A model generated the notes under the pieces. The model was not told where the DNA came from, searched no databases, and worked only from the letters and a program-made list of their open reading frames with translations. 64,000 nucleotides of DNA, taken from Escherichia coli. Lineage in GTDB: Bacteria > Pseudomonadota > Gammaproteobacteria > Enterobacterales > Enterobacteriaceae. The DNA lies in NCBI RefSeq assembly GCF_044324875.1, contig NZ_CP172186.1; one strand, given 5' to 3'. Below, piece after piece: positions 1,953-60,603 of the stretch. Numbering within the stretch: the first letter of the stretch is position 1; every line of letters begins with the position of its first letter. The position numbers and the translations under genes were made by a program.

Positions 1953-2699
1953 GTTTTTCCAGCTCTTACGGTGTATTACCTCCGCTTTGTAAAGGCCATT
2001 GATGCTCTCCGCCATCGCGTTGTCATACGAGTCACCAGTACTTCCTGTTGATGCCAGTAATCCGGCTTCCTTAAGCCGCTGTGTGTAGGCCAGCGATACA
2101 TACTGAGAACCTTTATCACTGTGATGGACTGTGCCGGACGGTCGACGGGCCCATAACGCCTGCTCCAGAGCATCCAGCACGAATGTCGTTTCCATAGACG
2201 ATGAGACCCGCCACCCCACGATGTATCCGGCAAACACATCAATGATGAACGCCACATAGACGACCCCCTGCCATGTGCTGACGTAAGTAAAATCAGCCAC
2301 CCACAACTGGTCAGGACGTTCTGCCACAAACTGACGGTTTACGCGGTCGCCTGCGGCAACGGCTTTCCGGCTGACGGTAGTGCGGACCTTTTTACCCCGG
2401 AGAACACCGGCAAGTCCCATAACCGCCATGAGGCGCGCCACTGTACATCTGGCTACCCTGATTCCTTCCCGTAACAACTGACGCCAGACTTTACGCACAC
2501 CGTATACCTGATGATTCCCATCGTATACGCGCAGTATCTCTTTCTTCAGCCAGTCATCGCGCTGCGCACGGGCACTGCGTTTATAAGGATGATGTCGCTG
2601 TTGCTGACAGTGGTAATACGTTGACGGGGCAATATGTAGTTCACTGCATACCGGTCCGACCCCGTACAGCTTACGCAGCTTATCCAGCAGTGGCATCAC
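1953..2699 (-). pseudogene. IS3-family transposase OrfB, C-terminally truncated
   Basis: About 95 percent identical to orfB at 15556-16401 up to ...EVIHRKSWKN, then reads into IS66 sequence (tracked ORF 1899-2699). Confidence 0.8.
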
Positions 2700-3022
2700 T
2701 TTTTCCAGAGGCGGTCGAACTCCGCCTTCGCAAAATAAGCGGAAGCCTGGCGAAGGATATCGTTACTGCGGCGCAGTTCACGATTTTCACGTTCCAGCTC
2801 TTTCAGACGCTGACGTTCAGCGGTGGTGAGCCCGCCATCACCGCCTCCGGTATCCCGCTCATGCTGGCGTACCCAGACACGCAGAGTCTCCGGTGTACAG
2901 CCAATCTTTGGGGCAATGGAACAAATTGCCGCCCACTGTGAGTCATATTCGCCCTGACTTTCCAGAACCATACGAATCGCCCTCTGACGGACTTCGGGGG
3001 AAAAACGAGTATTTTTAGTCAT
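2696..3022 (-). CDS. IS3-family transposase OrfA (HTH)
   Basis: 108 aa [15 protein letters not shown]..., near-identical to 15208-15534 and 58909-59235. Confidence 0.9.
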
Positions 3023-3076
3023 TCTGTTTACCTCTTTCTCAGGGAGTTTAGTCTCCAGGATTCCCGGGGCGGTTCA

Positions 3077-4542: not shown

Positions 4543-4545
4543 CAC

Positions 4546-7301: not shown

Positions 7302-7708
7302 CCAAACATATGGATATGCATGGTATCTGCATGTTTCTCTCTTTTTTCACCGGGATCCGAAAAATATCAGTCACGGATCTTCCTCTCCCCCACACAACAC
7401 CACCTCCTGTAAGTACAACATGTAGTACTTCCTTCGGCTGCTCATGACACTATATGTTGTGTTATTTCCCTGACTTGTGATGCGCCACGCAGGGGCGGAA
7501 AACAGCGATATGATGATTTCCTCATCGTGTAGACTGGCCCCCTGAATCTCCAGACAACCAGTATCACTTATTTAAGTGATAGTCTTAATACTAGTTTTTA
7601 GACTAGTCATTGGAGAGCAGATGATTGATGTCTTAGGGTAAGCGTACAGCCTGAACCGTCTGGTCAGAATCTGACGAATTAGACAAAGTGGTGTCCACCA
7701 AATAAGTA

Positions 7709-8110
7709 GTGGGAACCAAAGTGTCAGATATGCAGAAAAATGTGACTCCCGGCAGGCGAAAAGGCTGCCCTAATTATCCTCCCGAATTTAAACAGCAGCT
7801 CGTTGCTGCCTCCTGTGAACCCGGGATATCCATCTCAAAACTTGCTCTTGAAAATGGCATTAACGCCAATCTGTTGTTCAAATGGCGACAACAATGGCGC
7901 GAGGGAAAGCTGCTATTACCTTCTTCAGAGAGCCCCCAGCTACTTCCTGTGACTCTCGATGCAGCTGCCGAACAGCCAGAATCGCTCGCAGAGGACCCGG
8001 AAACCCTCAGTATCAGCTGTGAGGTAACGTTCCGGCACGGGACGCTCCGCTTCAATGGCAATGTCAGCGAAAAGCTCCTGACTCTGCTGATACAGGAACT
8101 GAAGCGATGA
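7709..8110 (+). CDS. tnpA: IS66-family TnpA (orf1)
   Basis: 133 aa, HTH-containing. Confidence 0.9.
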   Translation: MGTKVSDMQKNVTPGRRKGCPNYPPEFKQQLVAASCEPGISISKLALENGINANLLFKWRQQWREGKLLLPSSESPQLLPVTLDAAAEQPESLAEDPETLSISCEVTFRHGTLRFNGNVSEKLLTLLIQELKR

Positions 8111-8454
8111 TCCCTTTACCTTCCGGGACCAAAATTTGGCTGGTTGCCGGTATCACCGATATGAGAAATGGCTTCAACGGCCTGGCTGCGAAAGTACAGA
8201 CGGCGCTGAAAGACGATCCCATGTCCGGCCATGTTTTCATTTTCCGGGGCCGCAGCGGCAGTCAGGTTAAACTGCTGTGGTCCACCGGTGACGGACTGTG
8301 CCTCCTGACCAAACGGCTGGAGCGTGGGCGCTTCGCCTGGCCGTCAGCCCGTGATGGCAAAGTGTTCCTTACACAGGCGCAGCTGGCGATGCTGCTGGAA
8401 GGTATCGACTGGCGACAGCCTAAGCGGCTGCTGACCTCCCTGACCATGCTGTAA
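8107..8454 (+). CDS. tnpB: IS66-family TnpB (orf2)
   Basis: 115 aa; overlaps tnpA stop. Confidence 0.9.
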
Positions 8455-8503
8455 ATCTCTTTATCCTGGTTGTCACAGAATAAGCCCGGTAAAATACGGG
8501 CTT

Positions 8504-10042
8504 ATGAACGACATCTCTTCTGACGACATCTTCCTGCTGAAACAGCGCCTGGCCGAACAGGAAGCGCTGATCCACGCCCTGCAGGAAAAGCTGAGCAACC
8601 GGGAGCGCGAAATAGACCATCTGCAGGCGCAGCTGGATAAACTCCGCCGGATGAACTTCGGCAGTCGTTCCGAAAAAGTCTCCCGCCGTATCGCACAAAT
8701 GGAAGCCGATCTGAACCAGCTTCAGAAAGAGAGCGATACGCTGACTGGTAGGGTGTATGACCCGGCAGTACAGCGTCCGTTGCGTCAGACCCGCATCCGT
8801 AAGCCGTTCCCTGAATCACTACCCCGTGACGAAAAGCGACTGTTGCCTGCGGCGCCGTGCTGCCCGAACTGCGGCGGTTCACTGAGCTATCTGGGCGAGG
8901 ATACCGCCGAACAGCTGGAGTTGATGCGTAGCGCCTTCCGGGTTATCCGGACGGTACGGGAAAAACATGCCTGTACTCAGTGCGATGCCATCGTGCAGGC
9001 ACCTGCACCTTCGCGGCCCATCGAGCGGGGTATCGCCGGACCGGGGCTGCTGGCCCGCGTGCTGACCTCGAAGTATGCAGAGCACACCCCGCTGTATCGC
9101 CAGTCAGAAATATACGGCCGGCAAGGTGTGGAGCTGAGCCGTTCACTGCTGTCGGGCTGGGTGGATGCATGCTGCCGGCTGCTGTCTCCGCTGGAAGAGG
9201 CGCTTCATGGCTATGTCATGACTGACGGCAAACTCCATGCCGATGATACCCCGGTCCAGGTACTGATGCCGGGTAATAAGAAGACGAAGACCGGGCGGTT
9301 GTGGGCGTATGTTCGTGATGACCGCAATGCCGGGTCAGCGTTGGCACCTGCAGTGTGGTTCGCTTACAGCCCGGACAGAAAAGGCATCCATCCGCAGACT
9401 CATCTTGCTTGCTTCAGCGGTGTGCTGCAAGCGGATGCGTACGCCGGGTTCAACGAGCTGTATCGCAATGGTGGGATAACGGAAGCTGCCTGCTGGGCTC
9501 ATGCCCGCCGAAAGATCCACGATGTGCACGTCCGCATCCCGTCAGCACTGACGGAAGAAGCCCTGGAGCAGATCGGTCAGTTGTACGCCATAGAGGCGGA
9601 TATAAGGGGAATGCCGGCAGAGCAGCGGCTTGCTGAACGTCAGCGAAAAACGAAACCGCTGTTGAAATCCCTGGAAAGCTGGTTGCGTGAAAAGATGAAG
9701 ACCCTGTCGCGACACTCAGAGTTGGCGAAGGCGTTCGCGTACGCACTTAACCAGTGGCCGGCACTGACGTACTATGCGAACGATGGCTGGGTGGAAATCG
9801 ACAACAACATCGCTGAAAATGCCCTGCGGGCGGTAAGTCTGGGTCGTAAAAACTTCCTGTTCTTCGGCTCTGGCCATGGTGGTGAGCGGGGAGCGCTACT
9901 GTACAGCCTGATAGGGACGTGCAAACTGAATGACGTGGATCCAGAAAGCTACCTTCGCCATGTGCTTGGCGTCATAGCAGACTGGCCGGTCAACCGGGTC
10001 AGCGAACTGCTTCCGTGGCGCATAGCACTGCCAGCTGAATAA
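8504..10042 (+). CDS. tnpC: IS66-family transposase TnpC
   Basis: 512 aa; N-terminal leucine zipper, CxxC...C zinc motif, DDE core. Confidence 0.95.
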
Positions 10043-10087
10043 CACATCCCCGTCAATACGGCCCTCGCTGTACGCTTACGTCTTAGG

Positions 10088-10436
10088 ACCGGAGAAACGC
10101 AGACGGCGTACCACACAGGAAAAGATCGCAATTGTTCAGCAGAGCTTTGAACCGGGGATGACGGTCTCCCTCGTTGCCCGGCAACATGGTGTAGCAGCCA
10201 GCCAGTTATTTCTCTGGCGTAAGCAATACCAGGAAGGAAGTCTTACTGCTGTCGCCGCCGGAGAACAGGTTGTTCCTGCCTCTGAACTTGCTGCCGCCAT
10301 GAAGCAGATTAAAGAACTCCAGCGCCTGCTCGGCAAGAAAACGATGGAAAATGAACTCCTCAAAGAAGCCGTTGAATATGGACGGGCAAAAAAGTGGATA
10401 GCGCACGCGCCCTTATTGCCCGGGGATGGGGAGTAA
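10088..10436 (+). pseudogene. insC: IS2 insC (OrfA), split by the IS66 insertion after codon 6
   Basis: ATGATTGATGTCTTAGGG at 7621-7638 encodes MIDVLG; remainder [18 protein letters not shown]... resumes at 10088. Confidence 0.85.
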
Positions 10437-11299
10437 GCTTAGTCAGCCGTTGTCTCCGGGTGTCGCGTGCGCAGTTGCACGTCATTCTCAGACGAACCGA
10501 TGACTGGATGGATGGCCGCCGCAGTCGTCACACTGATGATACGGATGTGCTTCTCCGTATACACCATGTTATCGGAGAGCTGCCAACGTATGGTTATCGT
10601 CGGGTATGGGCGCTGCTTCGCAGACAGGCAGAACTTGATGGTATGCCTGCGATCAATGCCAAACGTGTTTACCGGATCATGCGCCAGAATGCGCTGTTGC
10701 TTGAGCGAAAACCTGCTGTACCGCCATCGAAACGGGCACATACAGGCAGAGTGGCTGTGAAAGAAAGTAATCAGCGATGGTGCTCTGACGGGTTCGAGTT
10801 CCGCTGTGATAACGGAGAAAAACTGCGAGTCACGTTCGCGCTGGACTGCTGTGACCGTGAGGCACTGCACTGGGCGGTCACTACGGGCGGCTTCAACAGT
10901 GAAACAGTACAGGACGTCATGCTGGGAGCGGTGGAACGCCGCTTCGGCAACGAGCTTCCGGCGTCTCCAGTAGAGTGGCTGACGGATAATGGTTCATGCT
11001 ACCGGGCTAATGAAACACGGCAGTTTGCCCGGATGTTGGGGCTTGAACCGAAGAGCACGGCGGTGCGGAGTCCGGAGAGTAACGGCATAGCAGAGAGCTT
11101 CGTGAAAACGATAAAGCGTGACTACATCAGTGTCATGCCCAAACCAGACGGGTTAACGGCAGCAAAGAACCTTGCAGAGGCGTTCGAGCATTATAACGAA
11201 TGGCATCCGCATAGTGCACTGGGTTATCGCTCGCCACGGGAATATCTACGGCAGCAAGCCAGTAATGGGTTAAGTGATAACAGGTGTCTGGAAATATAG
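10394..11299 (+). CDS. insD: IS2 InsD (OrfB, DDE transposase)
   Basis: 301 aa [21 protein letters not shown]... Confidence 0.9.
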
Positions 11300-11563
11300 G
11301 GGCAAATCCAAAAAATACTTAGGAATAATTTATGTAAAACAGGTTGTCGTCTTCATGATTTAAACGCAGTACATATATATACTCTATAATAAATACAGGG
11401 AGTATCACGAGACGTCTGGATAAGAGGAATAACCAGAATAAATTGGTAAGGAATAAAGACACTTATTTCTATTGAGAAAAAACATTTATCCTGATGTGAT
11501 TAGTATCAATGAAATAATGTGCTTGTATGGTTGATAAAAATGCATCACTAAAGAAAAAACAGT

Positions 11564-14500
11564 ATGAATAAGAATATACGAATTTTACAGTTTCTGGTCA
11601 GTATACTTTATTCTGTGCAGTCTCATTTTTCTGGTGCGCAAACAATACAACTGAATGGTAATGGTATACCTGAAAGTATAACCAGGAGTATTACAGGTGT
11701 TGATGGAAACGCGGCGCTTAATATCAGCGTGCCGTATAAAACAAGTTATACTCAAAATATACTATCTGTTGAAAGCAGTATTAACATCAAAGGAGGAACA
11801 AGCAATACATCAATCGGTGGTGCAGGTGTCTACGGTGAAAACTTTACGCTAAATAATAATGGTAGTGTTTGGGGAGGAGATGGATATAATGGTGGAGTTG
11901 CTGTTAGTGGCAACAAAATATCTATAAACAATTACAGAAATGTATATGGGGGTAATGGTCTTGGTGGCTCAGGAAGTAGCGGAGGTGCAGGGTTAAGCGG
12001 GGATGATATTATAGTTGATAATTACAGAAGTATATACGGAGGTGATGATCTAGGTGGGACAGGTGGTTCCGGTGTAACCGGGAGCAATATTACAGTGCAT
12101 AATTCCGGAGGAATATGGGGTGGTAATGGCGTAAACGGTGGTGATGGTATTAATGGTAGTAATCTTTTCATTACTAACGACAACATGATATCTGGAGGAT
12201 ATGGAATAAAACAAGGGGGAGATGCTATTTCTGGAAATCAAATCACTTTGAATAATAACGGTATTGTTCAGGGGGGATATGGCCCCGACGGTAGTTGCTC
12301 TGTTTATGGAGAAGATATCCATATTAATAATCATGGTAATATTTCAGGCTCATATAATAGCCAAAAAGATGCTTATAACACATCAATAATTTTTTCTGCT
12401 GGGTATAATTCATTAGATATTTATTCAGATTCTGTGATTAATGGTGATATTAAACTAGCTAGTATACCTGTTAATGGTACAAATGAATTAATTATTAAAA
12501 ACATCAATAACGCAACAGCAATTAATGGTGGGCTAATGATTGGGAATGGCTCGTCTGTTTATCTGTCAAGCAAGAACATCATTTTTAACGGAAATATAAG
12601 TATTGATGAAGACGCATCTATGAACCTGTCTGCAGGAAATGCTAATGTTCACGCAAATACTATTACATTAAAAAGTGATTCATGGCTTAATATAGACACA
12701 TCAATTAAGAACTGGACTCAGGACTATTACACATTATTGTCGTCAGACACAGGTATCTCGATCGCTGATAATAGTCACATTGTACAATACAATGTATTAC
12801 TGACAGAAGGTGCTGAAAGTTATGTTTATACGTCTTTAAATGACGACGATAACAAACTGATATCCATGCTGAGATGGAATAATACAAAAGGGATGGGATA
12901 TGGAACCTTTAATATAGAAAAAGATGCCACTCTGAACATAGGAGTTTCTCTTTCCGATAATCTTTCACCTTTATTATATGATGGCTGGGACGGCAAAAGT
13001 CTGACAAAATCAGGTAATGGTACTCTTATACTTTCTGCAACAAACAACTATACAGGAAATACAGAGGTTAAATCTGGCGTATTAATTCTTGCTGCACCTG
13101 ATGCTCTTGGTCGGACTGAGTATTTATATTTATCCCGTGGCGCAGAACTGGATATGAATGGGTATCCTCAGACAATAAGCAAACTACTGACGGCTGCAGG
13201 CTCTGTGCTGAACATTCATGGCGGAAGCCTGATACTGAATAATGGAGGAGAATCTGCAGGTACTATTGCAGGGGATGGTTCTCTGAACATAAATGGGGGA
13301 ATGCTTGATATAACGGGTAATAATCGTAATTTTTCCGGTGTTTTTACCGTGAATAAGGGGGCTCAGTTGGCTGTATCCACGGCTGATAATCTGGGGACAG
13401 CCTTTGTTGATAACTATGGCACATTAACTCTGAACAGTACATCAGCATGGCAGCTTACCAACAATATCAGTGGTTATGGTAATGTTCGCAAGACGGGAGC
13501 AGGTGCACTGAACATTAGCGATAACGCAAAATGGACCGGGATGACAGATATTATTCAGGGGACATTGATTCTGGGTAACGCAGATTCACCGGTGATGCTC
13601 GGCAGTAACCAGGTCATTGTTGAAGAGCAGGGCAAACTCTCCGGGTTTGGGGGCGTTGCAGGAAATCTGAGCAATAGTGGTATAGTCGATCTCACTACAT
13701 ATATGCCGGGTAATATACTGACTGTCGGAGGGAATTACACTGGCAGAAATGGACTTATTCTCCTCCAGACAGAAACAGGTGGTGACAATTCGAAAACAGA
13801 TCGTCTGGTGATTAAAGGTAATGCCAGTGGCCGTACCCGTGTCGCTGTTACTCAGGCCGGTGGTACTGGTGCAGAGACACTTAATGGGATTGAAGTGATT
13901 CACGTCAGTGGCAATGCTGATAATGCTGAATTCATTCAGACGGAACGTATTACAGCCGGAGCTTATGATTACATACTGAAACGTGGTCAGGGGATTAACA
14001 GCACTAACTGGTATCTGATTAGCAGAAAAGACATTCCTGTACCACAACCTGAAGCTGTACCGGAAAACCATGATAATAATTTGCGTCCTGAGGCAGGTAG
14101 CTATGTTGCCAGTATTGCTGCTGCAAATAATCTGTTTGTAACGAATCTGTATGAACGACAGGGACAGGAGTTGTATATCAGCCACATGACAGGAGAAGAA
14201 AATGAAGCAGGTATCTGGATGTATAATAAAGGAAAACATAATCGCTGGCGTGACAACAGTAGTCAGCTGAGAACCCGGGGGAATAGCTACGTTGTGTTAA
14301 TAGGGGGAGATATAGCTCAGTGGAGCCTGAATGGTACCGATCGCTGGCATACAGGTATGATGGCTGGCTATGGTCATAATCATAACAGTACGAATGCCCT
14401 GAGCACCGGATACCATTCGGAAGGAAGAATGAATGGATACACTGCGGGTCTTTATGCAACATGGTATGCCAATGATGAAACACACAATGGTTCTTATCTT

Positions 14501-15061
14501 GATAGCTGGCTGCAATACAGCTGGTTTGATAATCATATAAATGGAGAACGGCTGCCTGCTGAGTCATGGAAGTCAAAAGGGTTTACGGTATCTCTGGAAG
14601 CAGGATATTCATGGAAGGCTGGAGAGTTTACCGACAATTACAAGGGAAGTCATGAATGGTATGTTCAGCCGCAGCTTCAGGTTGTCCGGATGAATGTAAA
14701 ATCAGACAGACATCGTGAAAGTAACGGAACCAGTATTGAAAATACCGGTAACGGAAATATTCTCACTCGCCTGGGAGCGAGAACATGGTTTGTCAGTAAA
14801 AACGGTAAGAATTCACGGTATGCAGTTCCTCTCAGGCCATTTGTAGAAGTAAACTGGCTGCACAATAGTCGTGTTTTCGGCACCAGTATGAATGGTGTAA
14901 GTATTTACCAGGATGGGGCGCATAATATCGGAGAAATAAATGGTGGTGTTGTGGGAGTGATAACTCCAGAAGTGGTATTGCGGGCTGATGCAGGCATTCA
15001 ACTTGGAGAGCATGGATACCGCAATGCATCTGCTATGTTCGGCGTGGAATATCGTTTCTGA
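11564..15061 (+). CDS. Autotransporter (type Va) adhesin-like protein, AIDA-I/Ag43 type
   Basis: 1165 aa; N-terminal signal peptide; Gly-rich repetitive passenger (GGxGxxGG repeats); C-terminal beta-barrel ending ...FGVEYRF; AT-rich. Confidence 0.8.
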   Translation: MNKNIRILQFLVSILYSVQSHFSGAQTIQLNGNGIPESITRSITGVDGNAALNISVPYKTSYTQNILSVESSINIKGGTSNTSIGGAGVYGENFTLNNNGSVWGGDGYNGGVAVSGNKISINNYRNVYGGNGLGGSGSSGGAGLSGDDIIVDNYRSIYGGDDLGGTGGSGVTGSNITVHNSGGIWGGNGVNGGDGINGSNLFITNDNMISGGYGIKQGGDAISGNQITLNNNGIVQGGYGPDGSCSVYGEDIHINNHGNISGSYNSQKDAYNTSIIFSAGYNSLDIYSDSVINGDIKLASIPVNGTNELIIKNINNATAINGGLMIGNGSSVYLSSKNIIFNGNISIDEDASMNLSAGNANVHANTITLKSDSWLNIDTSIKNWTQDYYTLLSSDTGISIADNSHIVQYNVLLTEGAESYVYTSLNDDDNKLISMLRWNNTKGMGYGTFNIEKDATLNIGVSLSDNLSPLLYDGWDGKSLTKSGNGTLILSATNNYTGNTEVKSGVLILAAPDALGRTEYLYLSRGAELDMNGYPQTISKLLTAAGSVLNIHGGSLILNNGGESAGTIAGDGSLNINGGMLDITGNNRNFSGVFTVNKGAQLAVSTADNLGTAFVDNYGTLTLNSTSAWQLTNNISGYGNVRKTGAGALNISDNAKWTGMTDIIQGTLILGNADSPVMLGSNQVIVEEQGKLSGFGGVAGNLSNSGIVDLTTYMPGNILTVGGNYTGRNGLILLQTETGGDNSKTDRLVIKGNASGRTRVAVTQAGGTGAETLNGIEVIHVSGNADNAEFIQTERITAGAYDYILKRGQGINSTNWYLISRKDIPVPQPEAVPENHDNNLRPEAGSYVASIAAANNLFVTNLYERQGQELYISHMTGEENEAGIWMYNKGKHNRWRDNSSQLRTRGNSYVVLIGGDIAQWSLNGTDRWHTGMMAGYGHNHNSTNALSTGYHSEGRMNGYTAGLYATWYANDETHNGSYLDSWLQYSWFDNHINGERLPAESWKSKGFTVSLEAGYSWKAGEFTDNYKGSHEWYVQPQLQVVRMNVKSDRHRESNGTSIENTGNGNILTRLGARTWFVSKNGKNSRYAVPLRPFVEVNWLHNSRVFGTSMNGVSIYQDGAHNIGEINGGVVGVITPEVVLRADAGIQLGEHGYRNASAMFGVEYRF

Positions 15062-15207
15062 TGACTCTTTACATTATGAACATTCTTCGCAATATATTGT
15101 TTATAAGGCATGGTTAGCTGGGGGAAGCGGAAAATATGAAGACAGTAATGATTTGAACCGCCCCGGAAATCCTGGAGACTAAACTTCCTGAGAAAGATGT
15201 AAACAGG

Positions 15208-15534
15208 ATGACTAAAAATACTCGTTTTTCCCCCGAAGTCCGTCAACGGGCAGTTCGTATGGTTCTGGAAAGCCAGGGCGAATATGACTCACAATGGGCG
15301 GCAATTTGTTCCATTGCTCCAAAGATTGGCTGTACGCCAGAGACCCTGCGTGTCTGGGTTCGCCAGCATGAGCGGGATACCGGGGGCGGTGATGGTGGGC
15401 TCACCACCGCTGAACGTCAGCGTCTGAAAGAGCTGGAACGCGAAAATCGTGAACTGCGCCGCAGTAACGATATCCTTCGCCAGGCTTCCGCTTATTTTGC
15501 GAAGGCGGAGTTCGACCGCCTCTGGAAAAAATAA
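15208..15534 (+). CDS. IS3-family transposase OrfA
   Basis: 108 aa [26 protein letters not shown]... Confidence 0.9.
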
Positions 15535-15555
15535 TGCCACTGCTGGATAAGCTGC

Positions 15556-16401
15556 GTGAGCTGCAGTGAGCTGCATATTGCCCCGTCAACGTATTACCAC
15601 TGTCAGCAACAGCAGCATCATCCTGATAAACGCAGCGCCCGTGCGCAGCGTGATGACTGGCTGAAGAAAGAGATACAGCGCGTATACGATGAAAATCACC
15701 AGGTGTACGGTGTGCGTAAAGTCTGGCGTCAGTTGTTACGGGAAGGTATCAGAGTGGCCAGATGCACTGTGACACGTCTTATGGCGGTTATGGGTTTTGC
15801 CGATGTTCTCCGGGGTAAAAAGGTCCGCATTACCGTCAGCCGGAAAGCCGTTGCCGCAGGCGACCGCGTAAACCGTCATTTCGTGGCAGAACGTCCTGAC
15901 CAGCTGTGGGTGGCTGATTTTACTTACGTCAGCACATGGCAGGGCTTTGTTTATGTGGCGTTCATCATTGATGTGTTTGCCGGATACATCGTGGGATGGC
16001 GGGTCTCCTCGTCCATGGAAACGACATTCGTGCTGGATGCACTGGAGCAGGCGTTGTGGGCCCGTCGTCCATCTGGCACCATCCATCACAGCGATAAAGG
16101 CTCTCAGTATGTATCGCTGGCCTACACGCAGCGGCTTAAGGAAGTCGGATTACTGGCATCAACAGGGAGCACAGGCGACTCGTATGACAACGCGATGGCG
16201 GAGAGCATCAATGGTCTTTACAAGGCGGAGGTAATACACCGTAAGAGCTGGAAAAACCGGACAGAAGTGGAGCTGGCTACACTCACGTGGGTGGACTGGT
16301 ATAACAATCGACGATTGCTGGAAAGGCTGGGCCATACTCCCCCGGCAGAAGCAGAAAAAGCTTATTATGCTTCCATCGGAAACAATGATCTGGCAGCCTG
16401 A
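15556..16401 (+). CDS. IS3-family transposase OrfB (DDE; made as OrfAB fusion by -1 frameshift)
   Basis: 281 aa; tracked start is an alternative codon downstream of the frameshift window. Confidence 0.85.
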   Translation: MSCSELHIAPSTYYHCQQQQHHPDKRSARAQRDDWLKKEIQRVYDENHQVYGVRKVWRQLLREGIRVARCTVTRLMAVMGFADVLRGKKVRITVSRKAVAAGDRVNRHFVAERPDQLWVADFTYVSTWQGFVYVAFIIDVFAGYIVGWRVSSSMETTFVLDALEQALWARRPSGTIHHSDKGSQYVSLAYTQRLKEVGLLASTGSTGDSYDNAMAESINGLYKAEVIHRKSWKNRTEVELATLTWVDWYNNRRLLERLGHTPPAEAEKAYYASIGNNDLAA

Positions 16402-16493
16402 GTTCACAGACAAAACATTCTCCAGGAAACCCGGGGCGGTTCAATATGGATACCAGCTGTTCACTTCCAGAGCGGGCTGTTACCCGCTCTGCG

Positions 16494-17726
16494 TCATGTT
16501 GCCGCCAGCGGGCGACAGATCGCCCGCAGGGCGACGGCGCTGCACAGCGGAAACAGCGCCAGCAGAAGCCAGGGATAAACCGCCTGCGGCGACGGAATGA
16601 GCGCCTGGTCAAGTAAATGACCGAGCAGTAAATTCCCGGCTAACACCGCGCACCCTCCTGCGGTGGCGAGCGCTCCGTAGTGGGCGCCCAGCGTCGACTC
16701 CTCGGCGAACAGCGGGATCAGATCCTTGGCTGCGGGCACTAACAGCATCTGGCCGAGGGTGAGCAGCGTGACAAAACCAGCCGCCGGCATTAACCGCAGC
16801 CAACTTTCGGCGGGTGGGGCGGCGGCGAATAACGCCACGCTGGCAAAGGAAGCCGACAGCAGCAGAAAGCCCACCGGCAGGATGCGCACGGCGCCCATTC
16901 GCCGGGCGAAGCGGGCGAGAGGGAGCTGGAGGGTGATAATCAACAGCGAGGCCAGCATAAAGAGCGGCGCCAGATCCTGCTCGCGGCCGCCGGAACGTTG
17001 GATCTCCACCGGCAGAGCGAGGTAGAGTTGGTTGTAGCTCAACAGCCATGAGCTGTAGGCGAGAATAAACGCGACAAAGCGCGGCTGGCGCAAAGGCGTC
17101 CACCATGGGACTCGTCTGCGCGTTGTTGTCGTGTGCCCGTCGGCGGGCAGACCGAAAAAGAGCACCGCCAGCGCCAGAAGAAATATTCCCGCGCCGGCGA
17201 GGGCGATATGTCGAAAGCCGATCCCGCTCAGCACGCCTCCGGCCACCGGGCCGATCACCGCTCCCAGTTCACCGCATACCGCAAACAGCGCAAACCACTC
17301 GGCGCGGCTGCGTTTCCCGTTGGCCTGGCTGTGGGTACCGGCCCGCGCCAGCAGGGCCTCTATCGACGGGGAGAACAGGGCGCCGCCGACGCCGGTCAGG
17401 CAGGCGCCAAGGATAATGGCCCACAGCGACGCCCCGCACGCCAGCAGGAGAAAACCGGCGACGCGAACGACGCAGCCGGCGAGAATGATCGCCTTAGCGC
17501 CATAGCGGTCGGCCAGCGTCCCGCCGAGGATAAACATCCCCTGTTGGGAGAAGGTACGCAGCCCGAGGATCAGGCCGATAAGTCCGCCTGAGAGCAGCAT
17601 GTCGTCGCGCAGGAAGAGGGCGAGGAAAGGTACGACCGCGTAAAAGCCAATATTAAAAACGAACTGGCTTCCCAGTAACACCGGAGGCCAGAGGGTTGCC
17701 GCAGGGCGCAGGGAGAAAAGAGGCAT
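16494..17726 (-). CDS. MFS transporter
   Basis: 12-TM-like hydrophobic profile; ATG at 17726 chosen (tracked ORF extends to 17816 and overlaps the ATPase gene). Confidence 0.7.
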   Translation of the reverse strand: MPLFSLRPAATLWPPVLLGSQFVFNIGFYAVVPFLALFLRDDMLLSGGLIGLILGLRTFSQQGMFILGGTLADRYGAKAIILAGCVVRVAGFLLLACGASLWAIILGACLTGVGGALFSPSIEALLARAGTHSQANGKRSRAEWFALFAVCGELGAVIGPVAGGVLSGIGFRHIALAGAGIFLLALAVLFFGLPADGHTTTTRRRVPWWTPLRQPRFVAFILAYSSWLLSYNQLYLALPVEIQRSGGREQDLAPLFMLASLLIITLQLPLARFARRMGAVRILPVGFLLLSASFASVALFAAAPPAESWLRLMPAAGFVTLLTLGQMLLVPAAKDLIPLFAEESTLGAHYGALATAGGCAVLAGNLLLGHLLDQALIPSPQAVYPWLLLALFPLCSAVALRAICRPLAAT

Positions 17727-17737
17727 ATCCGCCCAAC

Positions 17738-18502
17738 CTAAACGATGAAATGAATGTGCTTTTTGCCGTGGTAAGGGGAGATCTCGATTTTGGTTTTCAC
17801 CCGGAAAACGTCCCACAGCAGCGCTTCGGACAAAATCTCCTCCGGCGTCCCGCTGGCGAGGATCTGCCCCTGCTGCATCACGATCAGCGAATCGCAGAAC
17901 ATCGCGGCATGGTTAAGATCGTGAATGGCCACAATGCTGGTTACCGGCAGCTCGCTGATCAACTGCATTAACTGCATCTGATGGTGTATATCCAGATGGT
18001 TGGTCGGCTCATCCAGCAGGATTTCGCTCGGGCTCTGCGCCAGCGCGCGGGCGATATGCACCCGCTGCCGCTCGCCGCCGGAGAGGCTTAACCATCCCTG
18101 TTCGCTTTTCTCCAGCATCGCTACCCGCTGCAGCGCGGCGGCAATCGCTTCGTCATCCTGAGCGCTCCAGTTTGAGAACGGAGAGTGGTGGGGAATGCGT
18201 CCCAGGCGCACGACGTCGCGCACCCGCATATTGGCCTCGGTCATGCCGTGTTGCTCGACGCAAGCCACGCGGCGGGCGAGCTGCTTTTTCGCCATCCGGG
18301 CGATATCCTGGCCGTCGAGGGTGACGCGACCTGCATCCGGGCGGCGCAGGCCCGCCAGAACGCGCAGCAGCGAGGATTTGCCGCAGCCGTTGGGCCCCAG
18401 CAGTCCGACCGTTTCTCCGCGCGGCACCCGCAGCGAGACATTATTGACGATGACCTTTTTGCCTGCCTTCCAGGTGATATTTTCAGCGCAAATACTCATC
18501 AC
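17738..18502 (-). CDS. ABC transporter ATP-binding protein (FecE/FepC-like, iron-chelate uptake)
   Basis: Walker A GPNGCGKSS, signature LSGGERQR, Walker B ILLDEPT. Confidence 0.9.
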   Translation of the reverse strand: MMSICAENITWKAGKKVIVNNVSLRVPRGETVGLLGPNGCGKSSLLRVLAGLRRPDAGRVTLDGQDIARMAKKQLARRVACVEQHGMTEANMRVRDVVRLGRIPHHSPFSNWSAQDDEAIAAALQRVAMLEKSEQGWLSLSGGERQRVHIARALAQSPSEILLDEPTNHLDIHHQMQLMQLISELPVTSIVAIHDLNHAAMFCDSLIVMQQGQILASGTPEEILSEALLWDVFRVKTKIEISPYHGKKHIHFIV

Positions 18503-19536
18503 TTATTCCTTGAGCGGTAGATAATCACGGCAAAGAAAGGCACCCCAACCAGGGCGGTTACTACCCCAACGGGCAGACTTTGCGGGGCAATCAGCAGGCG
18601 CGACGCAATGTCCGCCAGTACCATCAATATCGCCCCTGCCAGCGCGCTGGCGATCAGCAACGTTCGGTGCAGCGGGCCAAAGAAGAAACGCATCACGTGC
18701 GGCACCACCAGGCCAACAAAGCCGATTGAGCCGGCCATGCTGACGATGGTGGCGGTGATCAGCGCCGCAGTGGTGAAGAGGATCAGGCGCACGCGCGGCA
18801 CAGCAATCCCCAGCGAGGCGGCGGCATCGTCGCCGAAGGTGAACGCGTCCAGCGCCCGGGCATACCACAGGCAGACCGCCAGACCCGCGAGCACCACCAC
18901 GATGACCAACTGGAATTCGGGCCAGCGGACGCCGCTGAAGCTGCCCAGCAGCCAGAACATCACATCGCGCGCCTGCTGCGCGCTGGCGGTGGTGCTGATG
19001 GTATAGGCCGTGATGGCGTTAAATAACTGCGAGGCGGCGACGCCCGCAAGAATCGTACGCTCATTGCCGCCGCGCGCGCCGTTAGTCAGCAAGGCGACAA
19101 AGGCGAAGGCGGCGAAGGCCCCGGCAAAGGCGCCTGCCGAGAGGGAAATTGCGCCAGAGCCAAGGCCCAGCACCACGATCGACACCGCGCCGGTGGAGGC
19201 CCCGGCGGAGACGCCGAGGACGTAGGGTTCGGCGAGGGCATTCTTCAGCAAGCTTTGCAGCACGACACCGCAGATAGCGAGGCCGGCGCCGCAGCAGGCG
19301 GCGACCAGCGCGCGGCTGAGGCGGAAATCCCAGATAACGCTCTCATAGATACGGTTGAGCGGCTCAGCGGTTAAGCCGGTTCTGTTGCTGATAGCATAAA
19401 AGACATTCTGCAGCGGGATGGCCAGCTCGCCAACGCTGACGCCCACAGCGATCACCAGCGCCAGCACGATCGCTGCCAGTACACACCAGCCGGTGAGCAG
19501 TATGCTGCGGCACGTCTCAATCGCGCCGACGCTCAT
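18499..19536 (-). CDS. ABC transporter permease (FecCD family)
   Basis: 345 aa, multi-TM; overlaps the ATPase gene start by 4 nt. Confidence 0.85.
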   Translation of the reverse strand: MSVGAIETCRSILLTGWCVLAAIVLALVIAVGVSVGELAIPLQNVFYAISNRTGLTAEPLNRIYESVIWDFRLSRALVAACCGAGLAICGVVLQSLLKNALAEPYVLGVSAGASTGAVSIVVLGLGSGAISLSAGAFAGAFAAFAFVALLTNGARGGNERTILAGVAASQLFNAITAYTISTTASAQQARDVMFWLLGSFSGVRWPEFQLVIVVVLAGLAVCLWYARALDAFTFGDDAAASLGIAVPRVRLILFTTAALITATIVSMAGSIGFVGLVVPHVMRFFFGPLHRTLLIASALAGAILMVLADIASRLLIAPQSLPVGVVTALVGVPFFAVIIYRSRNK

Positions 19537-20534
19537 CAGTTCAGCCCCATTTTTCTCAGCTGCTCGCCCACCTGCTCCGCGCCGTAAAGCGTGCGAATGG
19601 TCGGATTCATCGCCTGACCGTCCATGACCACGATATGGCCTTTTTTCACCGCCTCCAGCTGGCTGACGGCGGGATCGCTTTTGAGGAATTTGATCTTCTC
19701 CTCGGCTTTATCCAGCGCCCAGCGGTTACGATCCAGGCTGGCGACCACGATCACATCCGGGTTGGCGGCAATAATGCTCTCCCAGCTCACCGTGGGCCAC
19801 TCGGTTTCGGAGGTAATCGCATTATGTCCGCCCAGCACGCTGGCGATAAATCCGGAGGCGCTGTTTTTGCCGCCGACATAGGCATCGGCCGAAGGTGAGG
19901 CGCTGGAGAACCAGAAGACGAAGGAGAGATCCTTTTTGCTTTTACCAAACTCCTGGCGCAGGTCGGCTTCACGTTTTTTGAAATCGGCAATCAGCGCCTG
20001 ACCACGATCTTCGACGTTGAAAATGCGGGAAAAATCGCTAATTTCCTGATACAGCCAGGTCATATCCCACAGCTTTTGCCGGCTGCCGTACATATCGCCG
20101 GTGGCCTTTTTGGTGGCGCACACCCCCGGTGAGACGTAGCTGTTCACGCCGACGGTGGCGAGATCTTCACGCCTGGCGACTTTGCTTTCCGGCCCCAGCA
20201 GCAGCGGCAACTGGGCGGGAACGAAATCAGGATTTTGCGCCAGCACCGATTCCAGGCTCGGAATTTCCACCGTCAAGGTTTTAATCTTCGCGTTTTGCTC
20301 AGCCAGCTGCGGTAAAACGCTGGTCGGCCAGAAGGCGCTGGCGACCACCTGCTTTTGCAGCCCGAGCAGCAGCAGAATTTCGACCGTATTTTGCCCCAGC
20401 GCGACCACGCGCTCCGGCGGCCGGGTGAAGGTCTCCTGATAGCCGCAGTTTTCAATCGTCAGGGGGTAGGTTGTTGCCAGCGCGGAACTGACGGCGGTGA
20501 ACATCAAGCCTAACGCGCAAAGGACCTTCTTCAT
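19536..20534 (-). CDS. Periplasmic substrate-binding protein (iron-siderophore/heme/B12 class)
   Basis: 332 aa with N-terminal signal peptide MKKVLCALGLMFTAVSSALA; first gene of a four-gene operon. Confidence 0.8.
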   Translation of the reverse strand: MKKVLCALGLMFTAVSSALATTYPLTIENCGYQETFTRPPERVVALGQNTVEILLLLGLQKQVVASAFWPTSVLPQLAEQNAKIKTLTVEIPSLESVLAQNPDFVPAQLPLLLGPESKVARREDLATVGVNSYVSPGVCATKKATGDMYGSRQKLWDMTWLYQEISDFSRIFNVEDRGQALIADFKKREADLRQEFGKSKKDLSFVFWFSSASPSADAYVGGKNSASGFIASVLGGHNAITSETEWPTVSWESIIAANPDVIVVASLDRNRWALDKAEEKIKFLKSDPAVSQLEAVKKGHIVVMDGQAMNPTIRTLYGAEQVGEQLRKMGLN

Positions 20535-38920: not shown

Positions 38921-41581
38921 GTGCGCCGTTGAAGCGCGGTGTTTTATGGAGTGTTGCCTGAAAAGCAACATGGCTTAGTGGTATAGCCATTGCATACTGT
39001 GGTTAGCCTTGCTTGGTAACAGGCTCGGAGATCCTGAAAAGGAGAGGTGAACATAGCATCCACAGAAAAGGGTGGTGAATATGGAAATCGTTATAAGTAT
39101 CACCATTCAATGCAAGATGTATATGGATAAACTGGGTTTGTTGAAGTCGAGATCTATGTGGGAAACAGGAAACCAATAACGCAGAACGATTGAAGCGTTA
39201 TTCCCGTACTAGCACAAGAAATCCGTCCGACGTTGATTGTGACCACTCTAACGGGCCAGCTATTGATGAAATAGTTAAACGATCGAAAGACATCCTAAGT
39301 ACATCGCATCTCCACACCGTGAAACTACGGGACTACCTAAACTGGATTTATACCCAGCATGGTAGCGGAGTCTCCATAGTACTCAAGGTCGGCCTGTAAT
39401 GGGTTCCGGCAGTCCGCATTATACGGAAGCAGCAAAGGTATAAATCAACCGGAAGGAAGATGAAAGCCTCACAGTGCTGCGGGGAAGGGAGACAGTTGTT
39501 AGATACATCAATCTCTAAGAGGAGGGTTAGCCAATGCTGCCTGATGAACTTGAGAAAAGATTAGATGGAATTGAGGATGCTTCAAAAAAAGGGTATCCAG
39601 TACGTAATCTATACAAAATTGCGTGTGAGCCCGGACTGTGGCTGCAAGCCTACGTGAATATACGGGCCAATGCAGGTGCACTGACTCAAGGTGTATCAAC
39701 AGATACCATTGATGGCTTTTCTATCGAAAGAGCAGAGAAGCTGGCAAAAACATTGCGGAGTAGAGAATACGTAGCGAAACCTGTACGCAGAGTTCAGATC
39801 CCAAAAAAGGACGGAAAAACCAGACCGCTGGGGATTCCAGGTGGAGACGATAAACTGGCGCAAGAAGTAGCAAGAATTATTCTGGAAAGGGTTTATGAAC
39901 CAGTATTCTCTGAACACTCTCATGGATTCAGACCAAAACGTTCGTGTGAAACTGCGCTCAGATCTATTCGTCCAGTCTGGAACGGAGTTAAATGGATCGT
40001 GGATGTTGATATCAAAGGTTTCTTTGACAATATCCCCCACAAACTATTGCTGAATACACTGGCAGAGAAAATTAAGGATAAGAATTTCCTGAAATTAATC
40101 GAACAGTGGCTGAAGGCAGGATATGTGGACAATTGGAAATACCATCGCTCATATTCTGGCACGCCACAAGGTGGGATAATTTCTCCCTTACTGGCAAATA
40201 TATACCTCGACAAACTGGACCGTTTTGTAGAACAGAATTTAATTCCTGCATATACAAGCGGTACAAAACGAAGAGCGAATCCAGATATGAACAGGCTGGC
40301 CCATAAGATTCATAAACTACGAAAGAAAGTAGACGGTATGGCAACTGATTCTGAATCAGAAAAAGAAGCCATAAAGAAAGAAATTGAACGACTGCTTGAA
40401 GAAAAACGTTCTATACCATCTCAGGTCATGAACGATCCAAACTTCAGGCGTATGTACTATGTTCGATATGCTGATGACTTCGTAATCGGTGTCATCGGCT
40501 CGAAGAAAGATGCTGAACATATATCAAGACAGGTCAGAAACTTTATTACTACTTCACTGGGATTGGAAGTTAATGAAGCAAAGACCAGGATCCGCCATAT
40601 CTCAGAAGGAGTTAATTTTTTAGGCTATGAAATCAGACAGGCAGATGCAAAGAAATTGCTGAAGCAGAAAATGCAAGGGCGGCACGCTCTCCGGAGATCC
40701 ACCACAGGAATTGTGCAGCTCTTCGTTCCTGACAATATAGCCGCTAAATTTTGTCACCAAAAGAAATATGGCTGTTATGAGAATGTGAAGGCTGTACATC
40801 GTTCAAGTCTACAAAATCTCAGTGAAGCTGAAATTGTTCTGACTTTCAACGCGGAAATGCGCGGATTGGCGAACTACTACAGTCTGGCGCTGGACATGAA
40901 ATATAAATTATCAAAATTATATTTCATATGGCAAATAAGCCTTTTTAAGACCCTGGCGAATAAACGACGTAGTTCAGTGAATAAAGTCGCCAAATCGCTA
41001 CGGCAAAATAATGGAGATCTGGCTATTACCGTTCAGGCCAAAAATGGATCCCGAAAGATTGAGGTTTTCAAACTCAAACATGTCAATCGCAACCGAACAA
41101 CGATTGTCGATACGGAACCGAGAACCGCACATATCACAACCCGCACAACAGAGATCATGCGTCGATTAGGGGCAAGGATCTGCGAGTATTGTGCGAAGAC
41201 TGGGCGCTGCGAAGTACATCATGTCAGAAAGCTAAAAGACCTGAAGAAAGGTCGTAAGGCCGGATATAAACCCAGCTTGTGGCAACTAATGATGATCGCA
41301 CGCCGCCGGAAAACGATGATTTTGTGCGCAAGTTGCCACGACAAGTTACATAGCGGAAAACTACCCGATTTGAGACAGGAAAAGGGAAGAATACTCCTGC
41401 AACCACCTGTCTCAAGCGGGGATTCTGCTAAATGAGTTTATCCCCAATAAGCTAGCAATGGAGAGCCGTATGCACTGAAAGGTGCACGTACGGTTCGGAG
41501 GGGGGGTAACGGTGATCTAACTCAAGATAAGCAGGACATATTCGCCATTTATCTTGAAAGACCACACGTACCCTACCCTAC
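38921..41581 (+). mobile_element. Group II intron (2661 bp) inserted in ssb
   Basis: 5' GTGCG, 3' ...AC; domain V-like hairpin GAGCCGTATGCACTGAAAGGTGCACGTACGGTTC at about 41462; encodes RT/maturase/HNH protein; flanking exons splice in frame. Confidence 0.85.
39534..41435 (+). CDS. Group II intron-encoded protein (reverse transcriptase - maturase - HNH endonuclease)
   Basis: 633 aa; RT motifs incl. YADDFVIGV; C-terminal HNH CEYC...HHV...CASCHDKLH. Confidence 0.9.
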   Translation: MLPDELEKRLDGIEDASKKGYPVRNLYKIACEPGLWLQAYVNIRANAGALTQGVSTDTIDGFSIERAEKLAKTLRSREYVAKPVRRVQIPKKDGKTRPLGIPGGDDKLAQEVARIILERVYEPVFSEHSHGFRPKRSCETALRSIRPVWNGVKWIVDVDIKGFFDNIPHKLLLNTLAEKIKDKNFLKLIEQWLKAGYVDNWKYHRSYSGTPQGGIISPLLANIYLDKLDRFVEQNLIPAYTSGTKRRANPDMNRLAHKIHKLRKKVDGMATDSESEKEAIKKEIERLLEEKRSIPSQVMNDPNFRRMYYVRYADDFVIGVIGSKKDAEHISRQVRNFITTSLGLEVNEAKTRIRHISEGVNFLGYEIRQADAKKLLKQKMQGRHALRRSTTGIVQLFVPDNIAAKFCHQKKYGCYENVKAVHRSSLQNLSEAEIVLTFNAEMRGLANYYSLALDMKYKLSKLYFIWQISLFKTLANKRRSSVNKVAKSLRQNNGDLAITVQAKNGSRKIEVFKLKHVNRNRTTIVDTEPRTAHITTRTTEIMRRLGARICEYCAKTGRCEVHHVRKLKDLKKGRKAGYKPSLWQLMMIARRRKTMILCASCHDKLHSGKLPDLRQEKGRILLQPPVSSGDSAK

Positions 41582-58852: not shown

Positions 58853-58908
58853 TTTGAACCGCCCCGGAAATCCTGGAGACTAAACTTCCTGAGAAAGATG
58901 TAAACAGG

Positions 58909-59235
58909 ATGACTAAAAATACTCGTTTTTCCCCCGAAGTCCGTCAACGGGCAGTTCGTATGGTTCTGGAAAGCCAGGGCGAATATGACTCACAATGGGC
59001 GGCAATTTGTTCCATTGCTCCAAAGATTGGCTGTACGCCAGAGACCCTGCGTGTCTGGGTTCGCCAGCATGAGCGGGATACCGGGGGCGGTGATGGTGGG
59101 CTCACCACCGCTGAACGTCAGCGTCTGAAAGAGCTGGAACGCGAAAATCGTGAACTGCGCCGCAGTAACGATATCCTTCGCCAGGCTTCCGCTTATTTTG
59201 CGAAGGCGGAGTTCGACCGCCTCTGGAAAAAATAA
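58909..59235 (+). CDS. IS3-family transposase OrfA
   Basis: Identical to 15208-15534 product. Confidence 0.9.
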
Positions 59236-59256
59236 TGCCACTGCTGGATAAGCTGC

Positions 59257-60102
59257 GTGAGCTGCAGTGAGCTGCATATTGCCCCGTCAACGTATTACCA
59301 CTGTCAGCAACAGCAGCATCATCCTGATAAACGCAGCGCCCGTGCGCAGCGTGATGACTGGCTGAAGAAAGAGATACAGCGCGTATACGATGAAAATCAC
59401 CAGGTGTACGGTGTGCGTAAAGTCTGGCGTCAGTTGTTACGGGAAGGTATCAGAGTGGCCAGATGCACTGTGACACGTCTTATGGCGGTTATGGGTTTTG
59501 CCGGTGTTCTCCGGGGTAAAAAGGTCCGCATTACCGTCAGCCGGAAAGCCGTTGCCGCAGGCGACCGCGTAAACCGTCATTTCGTGGCAGAACGTCCTGA
59601 CCAGCTGTGGGTGGCTGATTTTACTTACGTCAGCACATGGCAGGGCTTTGTTTATGTGGCGTTCATCATTGATGTGTTTGCCGGATACATCGTGGGATGG
59701 CGGGTCTCCTCGTCCATGGAAACGACATTCGTGCTGGATGCACTGGAGCAGGCGTTGTGGGCCCGTCGTCCGTCTGGCACCATCCATCACAGCGATAAAG
59801 GCTCTCAGTATGTATCGCTGGCCTACACGCAGCGGCTTAAGGAAGTCGGATTACTGGCATCAACAGGGAGCACAGGCGACTCGTATGACAACGCGATGGC
59901 GGAGAGCATCAATGGTCTTTACAAGGCGGAGGTAATACACCGTAAGAGCTGGAAAAACCGGACAGAAGTGGAGCTGGCTACACTCACGTGGGTGGACTGG
60001 TATAACAATCGACGATTGCTGGAAAGGCTGGGCCATACTCCCCCGGCAGAAGCAGAAAAAGCTTATTATGCTTCCATCGGAAACAATGATCTGGCAGCCT
60101 GA
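59257..60102 (+). CDS. IS3-family transposase OrfB
   Basis: 281 aa. Confidence 0.85.
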   Translation: MSCSELHIAPSTYYHCQQQQHHPDKRSARAQRDDWLKKEIQRVYDENHQVYGVRKVWRQLLREGIRVARCTVTRLMAVMGFAGVLRGKKVRITVSRKAVAAGDRVNRHFVAERPDQLWVADFTYVSTWQGFVYVAFIIDVFAGYIVGWRVSSSMETTFVLDALEQALWARRPSGTIHHSDKGSQYVSLAYTQRLKEVGLLASTGSTGDSYDNAMAESINGLYKAEVIHRKSWKNRTEVELATLTWVDWYNNRRLLERLGHTPPAEAEKAYYASIGNNDLAA

Positions 60103-60141
60103 GTTCACAGACAAAACATTCTCCAGGAAACCCGGGGCGGT

Positions 60142-60603
60142 TCAGTTTTGCCATTCTACAACCTGCTCCATCACGGCATCGGTAACCTTTGATATCAGTG
60201 CCGGTGAAACATCTGCGTCATACAGTTCTTTGAACGCAGCGGCTATCTCACGGGTGGTCATCCCTTTGGCATACAACGAGAGGATCTGGTTATCCATCCC
60301 GGTAATACGGGTCTGATTTTTCTTTACCAGTTGTGGTTCGAAGGTACCGTCACGATCGCGCGGAGTACGCAGTTCCAGTGGACCGTCGCCTGTGATAACG
60401 GTCTTTGTGGAATAACCGTTGCGGGAGTTAGCTCCTGGTCTGGACTGATTTTTCTCATACCCAAGATGGTGTGTCATCTCTGCATTGAGAGCGGCTTCAA
60501 CGCTGAGCTTTTTCAGCAGCCGATCAAACTGACTGAGGTCTTCAGGGGTTTTGAGGTTTTTGGCCAGTTCGTTAGCCAGAGCCTGTAACTGTTTTTCGTC
60601 CAT
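60142..60603 (-). pseudogene. IS256-family transposase, N-terminal fragment
   Basis: MDEKQLQALANELAKNLKTPEDL...RNGYSTKTV...PRDRDGTFEPQLV...SLYAKGMTTREI mutator-family N-terminus; ends at the IS629-like boundary. Confidence 0.7.

Follow-up and report, generated by a model that had tools for sequence, protein, structure and literature searches.

The published adhesin gene aatA and its bracketing insertion sequences in a ColV/ColBM-type virulence region of Escherichia coli

Results

Identity of the autotransporter gene and its locus

We analysed a stretch of 64,000 nucleotides of Escherichia coli DNA (contig NZ_CP172186.1 of assembly GCF_044324875.1; hereafter the window), in which an AT-rich segment enclosed by two insertion sequences (ISs) carries an autotransporter gene. 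By sequence comparison, this gene (11564..15061, + strand) is the published aatA, encoding avian pathogenic E. coli (APEC) autotransporter adhesin A, in its known pAPEC-O1-ColBM context, the flank type described as 'variant 3'. With high confidence we explain the region as a whole as a known gene for a type Va adhesin, the locus of which was cut by ISs and is inherited with the ColV/ColBM region. The gene, its role in adhesion and its IS/eitD context have been known since publications of 2010.

Positions 11000-15500 of the window showed 100% nucleotide identity to positions 81366-85866 of pAPEC-O1-ColBM (NC_009837.1), and equally to four further E. coli plasmids. In the annotation of NC_009837.1 an intact autotransporter (coding sequence WP_001038844.1) has an IS3-family transposase on one side and the eit iron-transport genes on the other. 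Like the window, pAPEC-O1-ColBM carries an IS2 interrupted by ISEc8 on the left of the gene and an IS629-like element followed by eitD on the right; the two are collinear at 99.7-99.95% identity, with no difference within 11000-15500. This collinearity is confined to window positions 7368-27963, and to the left and right of that interval the window has a different plasmid backbone. Dai et al. (2010) described a 3,498-bp open reading frame (ORF) encoding a 124-kDa autotransporter adhesin and listed the NC_009837.1 locus as a 98% identical homologue (PMC2944236). The name aatA they adopted from the characterisation of the plasmid gene by Li et al. (2010) (PMC2944236). They found IS2 (drawn interrupted) and IS91 sequences 5' of aatA and IS1, IS30 and IS629 sequences 3' of it, and distinguished three flank variants, the eitD-linked APEC_O1 variant ('variant 3') being present in 6.8% of aatA-positive strains (PMC2944236). 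Since nucleotide identity, ORF length and IS/eitD flanks all match this description, we regard the gene as a known one in a known context. No evidence contradicting its identity as aatA was found. The aatA gene of plasmid pAPEC-O1-ColBM is reportedly the subject of Li et al. 2010 (Infect Immun 78:898).

The aatA coding sequence (3,498 bp, + strand) starts with ATG and encodes 1165 amino acids, followed by a stop codon, with the C-terminus ...FGVEYRF. Shuffling the 3.8-kb segment 2000 times gave stop-free runs of at most 169 codons; the ORF is thus far longer than expected by chance and is taken as real. The GC content of the segment 11311..15153 is 0.405, compared with 0.527 for the rest of the window and approximately 0.54 for the flanking ISs. 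It is lowest, at 0.289, in the 253 bp 5' of the gene (11311..11563, + strand), an AT-rich upstream region that holds the native aatA promoter as placed by Dai et al. An initial annotation, made from the sequence alone, had recognised an AT-rich island and in it a 1165-residue protein with a signal peptide, glycine-rich repeats and a C-terminal barrel. These features held up in the ORF list, in inspection of the N-terminus by eye, in the match to PF03797 and in the GC values. The annotation had also considered that the gene might be a frameshifted pseudogene; the ORF is intact here and is annotated as intact in hundreds of genomes.

Domain architecture of AatA

AatA combines a Sec signal, a passenger with an autochaperone and a 12-strand barrel ending in an aromatic residue, and thereby has the make-up of a type Va autotransporter. 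Its N-terminus, judged by eye for charge and hydropathy, consists of the basic stretch MNKNIR, a 12-residue hydrophobic core ILQFLVSILYSV (Kyte-Doolittle 2.3-2.6) and a predicted cleavage site SGA/Q with small residues at -3 and -1, together giving a predicted Sec signal peptide of residues 1-25 (11564..11638, + strand). A signal peptide was predicted by Dai et al. as well (PMC2944236). Glycine makes up 32-34% of residues 101-200, and residues 94-251 (11843..12316, + strand) form 6-7 imperfect glycine-rich units of 25-30 amino acids; their autocorrelation peaks at offset 25 (z = 6.6), and they align to the repeat region of IcsA. The repetition is visible in the protein only; Tandem Repeats Finder gave no DNA tandem array of note for the passenger repeats.

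Downstream of the repeats, profile searches located a VirG/IcsA insertion domain (VID) at residues 377-434 (12692..12865, + strand; PF22364, E = 1.6e-07), a PATR domain with its best stretch at residues 480-508 (13001..13087, + strand; PF12951, E = 1.3e-09; also TIGR02601) and a type 1 autochaperone at residues 717-805 (13712..13978, + strand; PF18883 (AC_1), E = 6.1e-24). Pfam detected a Pertactin domain besides these three. The beta-barrel covers residues 884-1143 (14213..14992, + strand; PF03797, E = 9.5e-34) and scored 117.7 against a 26-bit cutoff for PF03797 and 320 bits for TIGR01414; its terminal strand ...FGVEYRF ends at 15058. Among solved structures, the IcsA passenger (PDB 5ke1) aligned to residues 376-549, the IcsA autochaperone (3ml3) and AIDA-I (4mee) to the autochaperone, and the autochaperone plus barrel of AIDA-I (4mee) to residues 711-1165 (E = 2e-74). 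From these domains and the matches to solved IcsA and AIDA-I fragments, a beta-helical passenger is predicted. Neither Peptidase_S6 nor another enzymatic domain was found in AatA with Pfam (E ≤ 0.01), so that it is not a serine protease autotransporter of the Enterobacteriaceae (SPATE); a SPATE domain was what the initial annotation had named as counting against an adhesin.

Over its whole length AatA is collinear with Shigella IcsA (VirG): residues 45-550 aligned to IcsA 84-597 at 33% identity, glycine-rich repeats included, and residues 592-1165 to IcsA 494-1102 at 34%. This agrees with a 2022 review that places AatA in autotransporter Group 8 with IcsA, MisL, ShdA and EhaA (PMC9289746). The two proteins share glycine-rich repeats, VID, PATR, autochaperone and barrel in the same order, but an identity of 33-34% is below the level of orthology and makes IcsA a distant homologue. 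They also differ in reported function, IcsA recruiting N-WASP and driving actin-based motility, and AatA being reported to mediate adhesion and aggregation in a pathogen that is extracellular. AIDA-I, like TibA and Ag43, is a surface adhesin of the type Va pathway, with an autochaperone and barrel closely related to those of AatA. AIDA-type repeats, however, are 19 residues long, as against 25-30 in AatA. In the homology search that had been proposed for the passenger, the latter proved to be IcsA-like and the match to AIDA-I to be C-terminal only: the NCBIfam AIDA-I model NF033176 reached 274.9 bits against a cutoff of 1200, with only residues 696-1165 aligned. The MisL, ShdA, YfaL and ECSE_1600 models all stayed under their cutoffs (MisL 357 vs 1297; ECSE_1600 495 vs 2335); NCBIfam equivalog matches were restricted to the C-terminal half of AatA, and the generic barrel model alone passed. 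Tsh and other SPATEs of ColV-type plasmids share with AatA type Va secretion and a place in the APEC plasmid virulence region, but differ from it by their Peptidase_S6 domain.

Surface display and adhesion

From the domain content and type Va biology, the 25-residue Sec signal would carry AatA to the periplasm, where the C-terminal 12-strand barrel would insert into the outer membrane. The passenger would then thread out and fold from the autochaperone domain into a beta-helix, and would stay on the cell surface bearing the IcsA-like glycine-rich repeats and the VID. The proposal that the gene encodes an autotransporter adhesin agrees with published experiments: expression of AatA in a fim-negative K-12 strain conferred adhesion, and antibody inhibited AatA-mediated adhesion to chicken DF-1 cells (PMC2944236). 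Li et al., as relayed by Dai et al., found that APEC_O1 AatA contributes to full virulence in chickens (PMC2944236), and roles in virulence and aggregation are cited in both PMC2944236 and PMC9289746. The functional promoter lies within 100 bp of the ATG, with a predicted start site at -85 for APEC_O1 (PMC2944236).

The bracketing insertion sequences

The initial annotation had placed the autotransporter gene exactly between the end of an IS2 at 11310 and the start of an IS629-like element at 15154, and matches to the inverted repeats confirmed both borders. The right inverted repeat of IS2 (...GGGGCAAATCCA) ends at 11310 and abuts the aatA module. On the other side, the left inverted repeat of IS629 type (TGAACCGCCCCGG...) begins at 15154 and the right one ends at 16443, which together with an alignment to IS629 delimits an IS629-like element of the IS3 family of 1290 bp (15154..16443, + strand). 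The true left end of IS2 lies at 7530, where its left inverted repeat was matched, since the element is split by an ISEc8 that the initial annotation did not contain. A left part of IS2 (7530..7637, + strand), comprising the left repeat and the start of the first ORF, is followed by ISEc8 (IS66 family; 7638..10079, + strand; annotated as such in NC_009837.1) and by the right part of IS2 (10088..11310, + strand). ISEc8 is flanked by a perfect 8-bp target site duplication (TSD), GTCTTAGG, at 7630-7637 and 10080-10087. Without ISEc8, IS2 measures 108 + 1223 = 1331 bp, which is the length of a second IS2 copy in the window.

As had been noted initially, neither bordering IS has a TSD: the 5-bp flanks of IS2 (7530/11310) are TCGTG and AAAAA, and those of the IS629-like element are ..GATT and ATAT... 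As positive controls for the 5-bp rule, AAGAG stands on both sides of the second IS2 copy and GTATC on both sides of an IS2 found near aatA in another context (locus L008). The second IS2 (61063..62393, - strand) is intact. Of its 1331 positions, 46 differ from the IS2 next to aatA, and the two copies are therefore regarded as separate acquisitions.

Both bracketing elements look disabled in cis, as judged from their reading frames. ISEc8 (2.4 kb) interrupts IS2 about 5 codons into its first ORF and separates it from its promoter-proximal end. The IS629-like element shares 92.6% identity with true IS629 and has a 20-bp deletion just after the orfA stop, as a result of which a stop codon precedes orfB in frame 0 and the -1 frame is closed; in NC_009837.1, RefSeq marks its transposase as a frameshifted pseudogene. 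The ALIL frameshift pseudoknot is still detectable at 15489-15575 (Rfam RF01497). A second copy, at 58855..60144, has the same identity to IS629 and the same deletion; it differs from the copy at 15154..16443 at 2 positions and likewise lacks a TSD. Two copies of a defective element suggest that it was mobilised in trans or duplicated by recombination. A partial copy of true IS629 (1953..3076, - strand; left repeat ending at 3076) matches IS629 copies of other loci at 99.5-99.9% identity, and the IS629-like copies of the window at about 92%. A swap of TSD halves between IS copies, for which we compared the flanks of the IS2 at 61063..62393, the IS629-like copy at 58855..60144 and the partial IS629 at 1953..3076, was rejected: the second IS2 keeps its own AAGAG, and no combination of IS629-type flanks matches.

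Distribution and genomic contexts of aatA

Of 5,426 complete E. coli genomes, 687 carried the 3,843-bp aatA module; it was located 486 times on a chromosome and 252 times on a plasmid. A census of upstream types in complete E. coli genomes, made with junction-spanning queries, assigned 413 genomes to a continuous IS91-remnant type, 211 to an E. coli B type, 49 to a type with IS2 at -58 and 30 to the type of the window; the right junction of the window type was likewise found in 30 genomes. The plasmid context of the window is thus a minority lineage, accounting for approximately 4% of aatA-carrying complete genomes, and the census adds modestly to the descriptions of 2010. Other contexts include a selC tRNA island where IS1 lies on one side or on both, the E. 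coli B island, and IncF plasmids with an IS91 remnant upstream and a phoA-fragment/relE-phd/repA(IncFII) stretch downstream. At other loci the sequence runs unbroken past the position of 11311 (...CCTAGGTCTTCTCTGG/AAAAATAC...) and past that of 15153 (...AGTAATGATT/TCTAAGAGATTT...), which indicates that the ISs of the window cut into a longer ancestral segment. A search of the window for the ancestral continuations (upstream ...CCTAGGTCTTCTCTGG, downstream TCTAAGAGATTTGAAATGCG...) found neither.

Nearly all of the 30 window-type genomes carry the junctions on poultry plasmids of 155-207 kb, and the full IS2::ISEc8-aatA-IS629-like-eitD arrangement occurred in only eight plasmid records. Three exceptions with other outer flanks were examined: the chromosome of strain MS 119-7 and plasmids pEc673-2 and pSCZP1. 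The first two keep both inner junctions, and in both the IS629-like element is cut at 15501 and joined to the sequence from 27712 onward; window positions 15502-27711 are lost, with the colicin genes still alongside. Plasmid pSCZP1 retains just 86 bp of the IS629-like element. By sequence, these three loci are rearranged descendants of one colicin-plasmid lineage, not independent insertions of the IS2-aatA-IS629-like block. A check for the same IS-bracketed unit in other plasmids, proposed in the initial annotation, thus gave no independent site: the three exceptions examined derive from a single plasmid lineage. The MS 119-7 chromosome (locus L010, 912000-938000) carries aatA together with the colicin V, B and M genes and an afa-type fimbrial cluster, and a ColV/ColBM-type plasmid region appears to have integrated there.

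In strain AHM9C61I, the selC island holds aatA between two inverted IS1 copies that differ from each other at 6 positions (locus L002, 3935..9652), adjoining tRNA-Sec and a truncated integrase. We rejected this IS1-aatA-IS1 arrangement as a compound transposon, since its outer ends lack a 9-bp duplication and the genes on the outside are truncated.

The IS2-aatA-IS629-like block as a possible mobile unit

The reading of the block as a translocatable unit or compound transposon is not supported, having failed on every criterion tested. With compound transposons and IS26-type translocatable units the block shares a cargo gene between two ISs in the same orientation. Unlike them, its left border is formed by IS2 and its right border by a different element, the IS629-like one, with differing terminal repeats instead of identical or compatible ends. 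No TSD was found around the whole block (7530 to 16443; outer flanks ..TCGTG vs ATATG..), nor was the block found at an independent site, judging from the three loci with other outer flanks that were examined out of the 30 junction-carrying genomes. Neither bracketing IS appears to encode a functional transposase in cis, IS2 being split by ISEc8 and the frame of the IS629-like element being broken. A second context for the block seemed to be present in plasmids H80-H86, where matches ran from the left repeat of IS2 to the right repeat of the IS629-like element; it was an artefact of non-collinear BLAST pieces that had been joined. Inspection of these plasmids placed the IS629-like copy 5' of aatA, with the ancestral relE-phd-repA stretch following the gene on its 3' side.

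We propose instead that aatA belongs to a low-GC, horizontally acquired segment circulating on E. coli chromosomes and IncF plasmids, into which IS2 (left) and the IS629-like element (right) have cut in the lineage of the window. As the most likely cause of the missing TSDs we consider that the outer flanks were replaced afterwards, through adjacent deletion by an IS or recombination between ISs. On this view the block is inherited with the ColV/ColBM virulence region and is not self-transposing. Of the initial idea of a translocatable unit assembled by IS recombination, the unit is thus not supported, given its presence in 30 of 687 genomes and the lack of a TSD, while recombination is plausible but not shown.

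Allele mosaicism and IS2-family insertions upstream of aatA

Compared with five other contexts in sliding windows, the aatA allele is 97-100% identical from the start codon to approximately 14790. Over 14791-15153 (+ strand), which covers the last ~270 bp (~90 codons) of the gene and its 3' flank, identity drops to 88% and 81%. This divergent 3' end matches the 19 C-terminal substitutions that Dai et al. noted for APEC_O1 AatA (PMC2944236), and the pattern of identity indicates a mosaic allele with a recombinant 3' end. Chromosomal aatA of APEC IMT5155 and of E. coli B/BL21/REL606 (PMC2944236) shares with the window the 1165-aa ORF and 97-100% DNA identity up to ~14790; it differs in its 3' end and flank (81-88%) and in its surroundings, these being an IS91 remnant, IS1, the selC island, or a diverged IS2-like remnant 8 bp further in.

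Over the 253 bp 5' of aatA, four of the five other contexts match at 97.6-99.2% identity, and the E. coli B context alone diverges (80%). There (locus L003, ~5000), a diverged relative of IS2, sharing 21 of 26 terminal bases and in the same orientation as the window IS2, abuts aatA with its right end 8 bp further in than the latter. In locus L008, an IS2 (4197-5528) with an intact GTATC duplication lies 58 bp before the aatA ATG, an arrangement present in 49 genomes. Three independent IS2-family insertions have thus occurred within ~200 bp 5' of aatA, each oriented with its right repeat towards the gene. The right repeat of IS2 supplies an outward -35 that is able to form fusion promoters (PMC9330008). 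This property and the recurrence of the insertions raise the possibility that selection on aatA expression is the cause. A simple sigma-70 scan found no IS2-derived fusion promoter at the window, L008 or E. coli B junctions. We judge it unlikely that the insertions recur because selection favoured an AT-rich adhesin gene activated or de-silenced by an IS, as opposed to a mere hot spot.

Wider context in the window

Right of the IS629-like element, four ORFs (16494..20534, - strand) encode a major facilitator superfamily transporter, an ATP-binding cassette ATPase, a permease and a substrate-binding protein according to the pAPEC-O1-ColBM annotation; by this correspondence they are the eit iron-uptake operon, of which eitD served Dai et al. 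as a flank marker (PMC2944236). The backbone past 27963 contains genes for ParM (31106), a DUF1281 protein (33109), a group II intron reverse transcriptase (39534..41435), a ParB-like protein (42417) and a MobA/VirD2-type relaxase (55235..57937), as well as an IS21-like element (44991). For window positions 28000-52000 the best plasmid match showed 96% identity over 89%. The closest plasmid over 2989-21501 is pCh101, typed as IncK2/Z and MOBP. The virulence region seems to sit in a hybrid or non-IncF-typical plasmid.

Discussion

We interpret the locus as the known adhesin gene aatA, cut by ISs and inherited with a ColV/ColBM region. Several points weigh against this interpretation. The events that would have removed the TSDs are inferred, and no empty site, reciprocal product or flank swap was found. 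Li et al. saw no expression of wild-type AatA in APEC_O1 in vitro, as stated by Dai et al. (PMC2944236), a simple sigma-70 scan found no consensus promoter 5' of aatA, and the host receptor of AatA is not known (PMC9289746). Since Dai et al. detected both aatA transcript and protein in APEC_O1 (PMC2944236), expression from the APEC_O1 context is disputed. The negative observation of Li et al., the outcome of the promoter scan and the upstream GC of 0.29 could also be taken to mean that aatA is silent or decaying cargo in this place, AT-rich DNA silenced by H-NS, with a displaced promoter, and kept by linkage to ColV/ColBM. We hold this to be very unlikely: besides the transcript and protein, the ORF is intact and identical in at least five independent assemblies, the 253-bp upstream region with its experimentally defined promoter is retained at 97.6-99.2% identity in four of five contexts, and the contribution of APEC_O1 AatA to virulence in chickens, relayed from Li et al. 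in PMC2944236, speaks for a functional gene.

The lack of a known receptor and the collinearity with IcsA, which extends through the glycine-rich repeats and the VID, would suit a protein that is not primarily an adhesin and instead nucleates actin through its glycine-rich repeats, or that is a secreted protease or toxin. Yet identity to IcsA is only 33-34%, AatA has neither Peptidase_S6 nor another enzymatic domain, and APEC are not known for actin-based motility. As adhesion was moreover demonstrated in a fim-negative K-12 strain and inhibited by antibody (PMC2944236), we regard such a primary function as extremely improbable. There is hardly more to be said for movement of the IS2-aatA-IS629-like block between replicons by means of its bracketing ISs, to which we assign a very slight chance. 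Mobile elements do flank aatA in every context seen, chromosomes and plasmids both carry the gene, both junctions recur in the MS 119-7 chromosome, and the intact IS2 and true IS629 sequences in the window could act in trans. However, the junctions occur in only 30 of 687 aatA genomes, and the variants that we checked are deletion or truncation derivatives that keep the colicin genes, which implies that whole plasmid regions moved. The two different ISs, one split and the other with a broken transposase frame, the lack of a TSD around the block and the artefactual nature of the apparent H80-H86 context point in the same direction.

AatA is already recognised in APEC as an adhesin and virulence marker and as a candidate for vaccines. 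The presence of its gene here merely marks the window as a ColV/ColBM-type virulence plasmid region.

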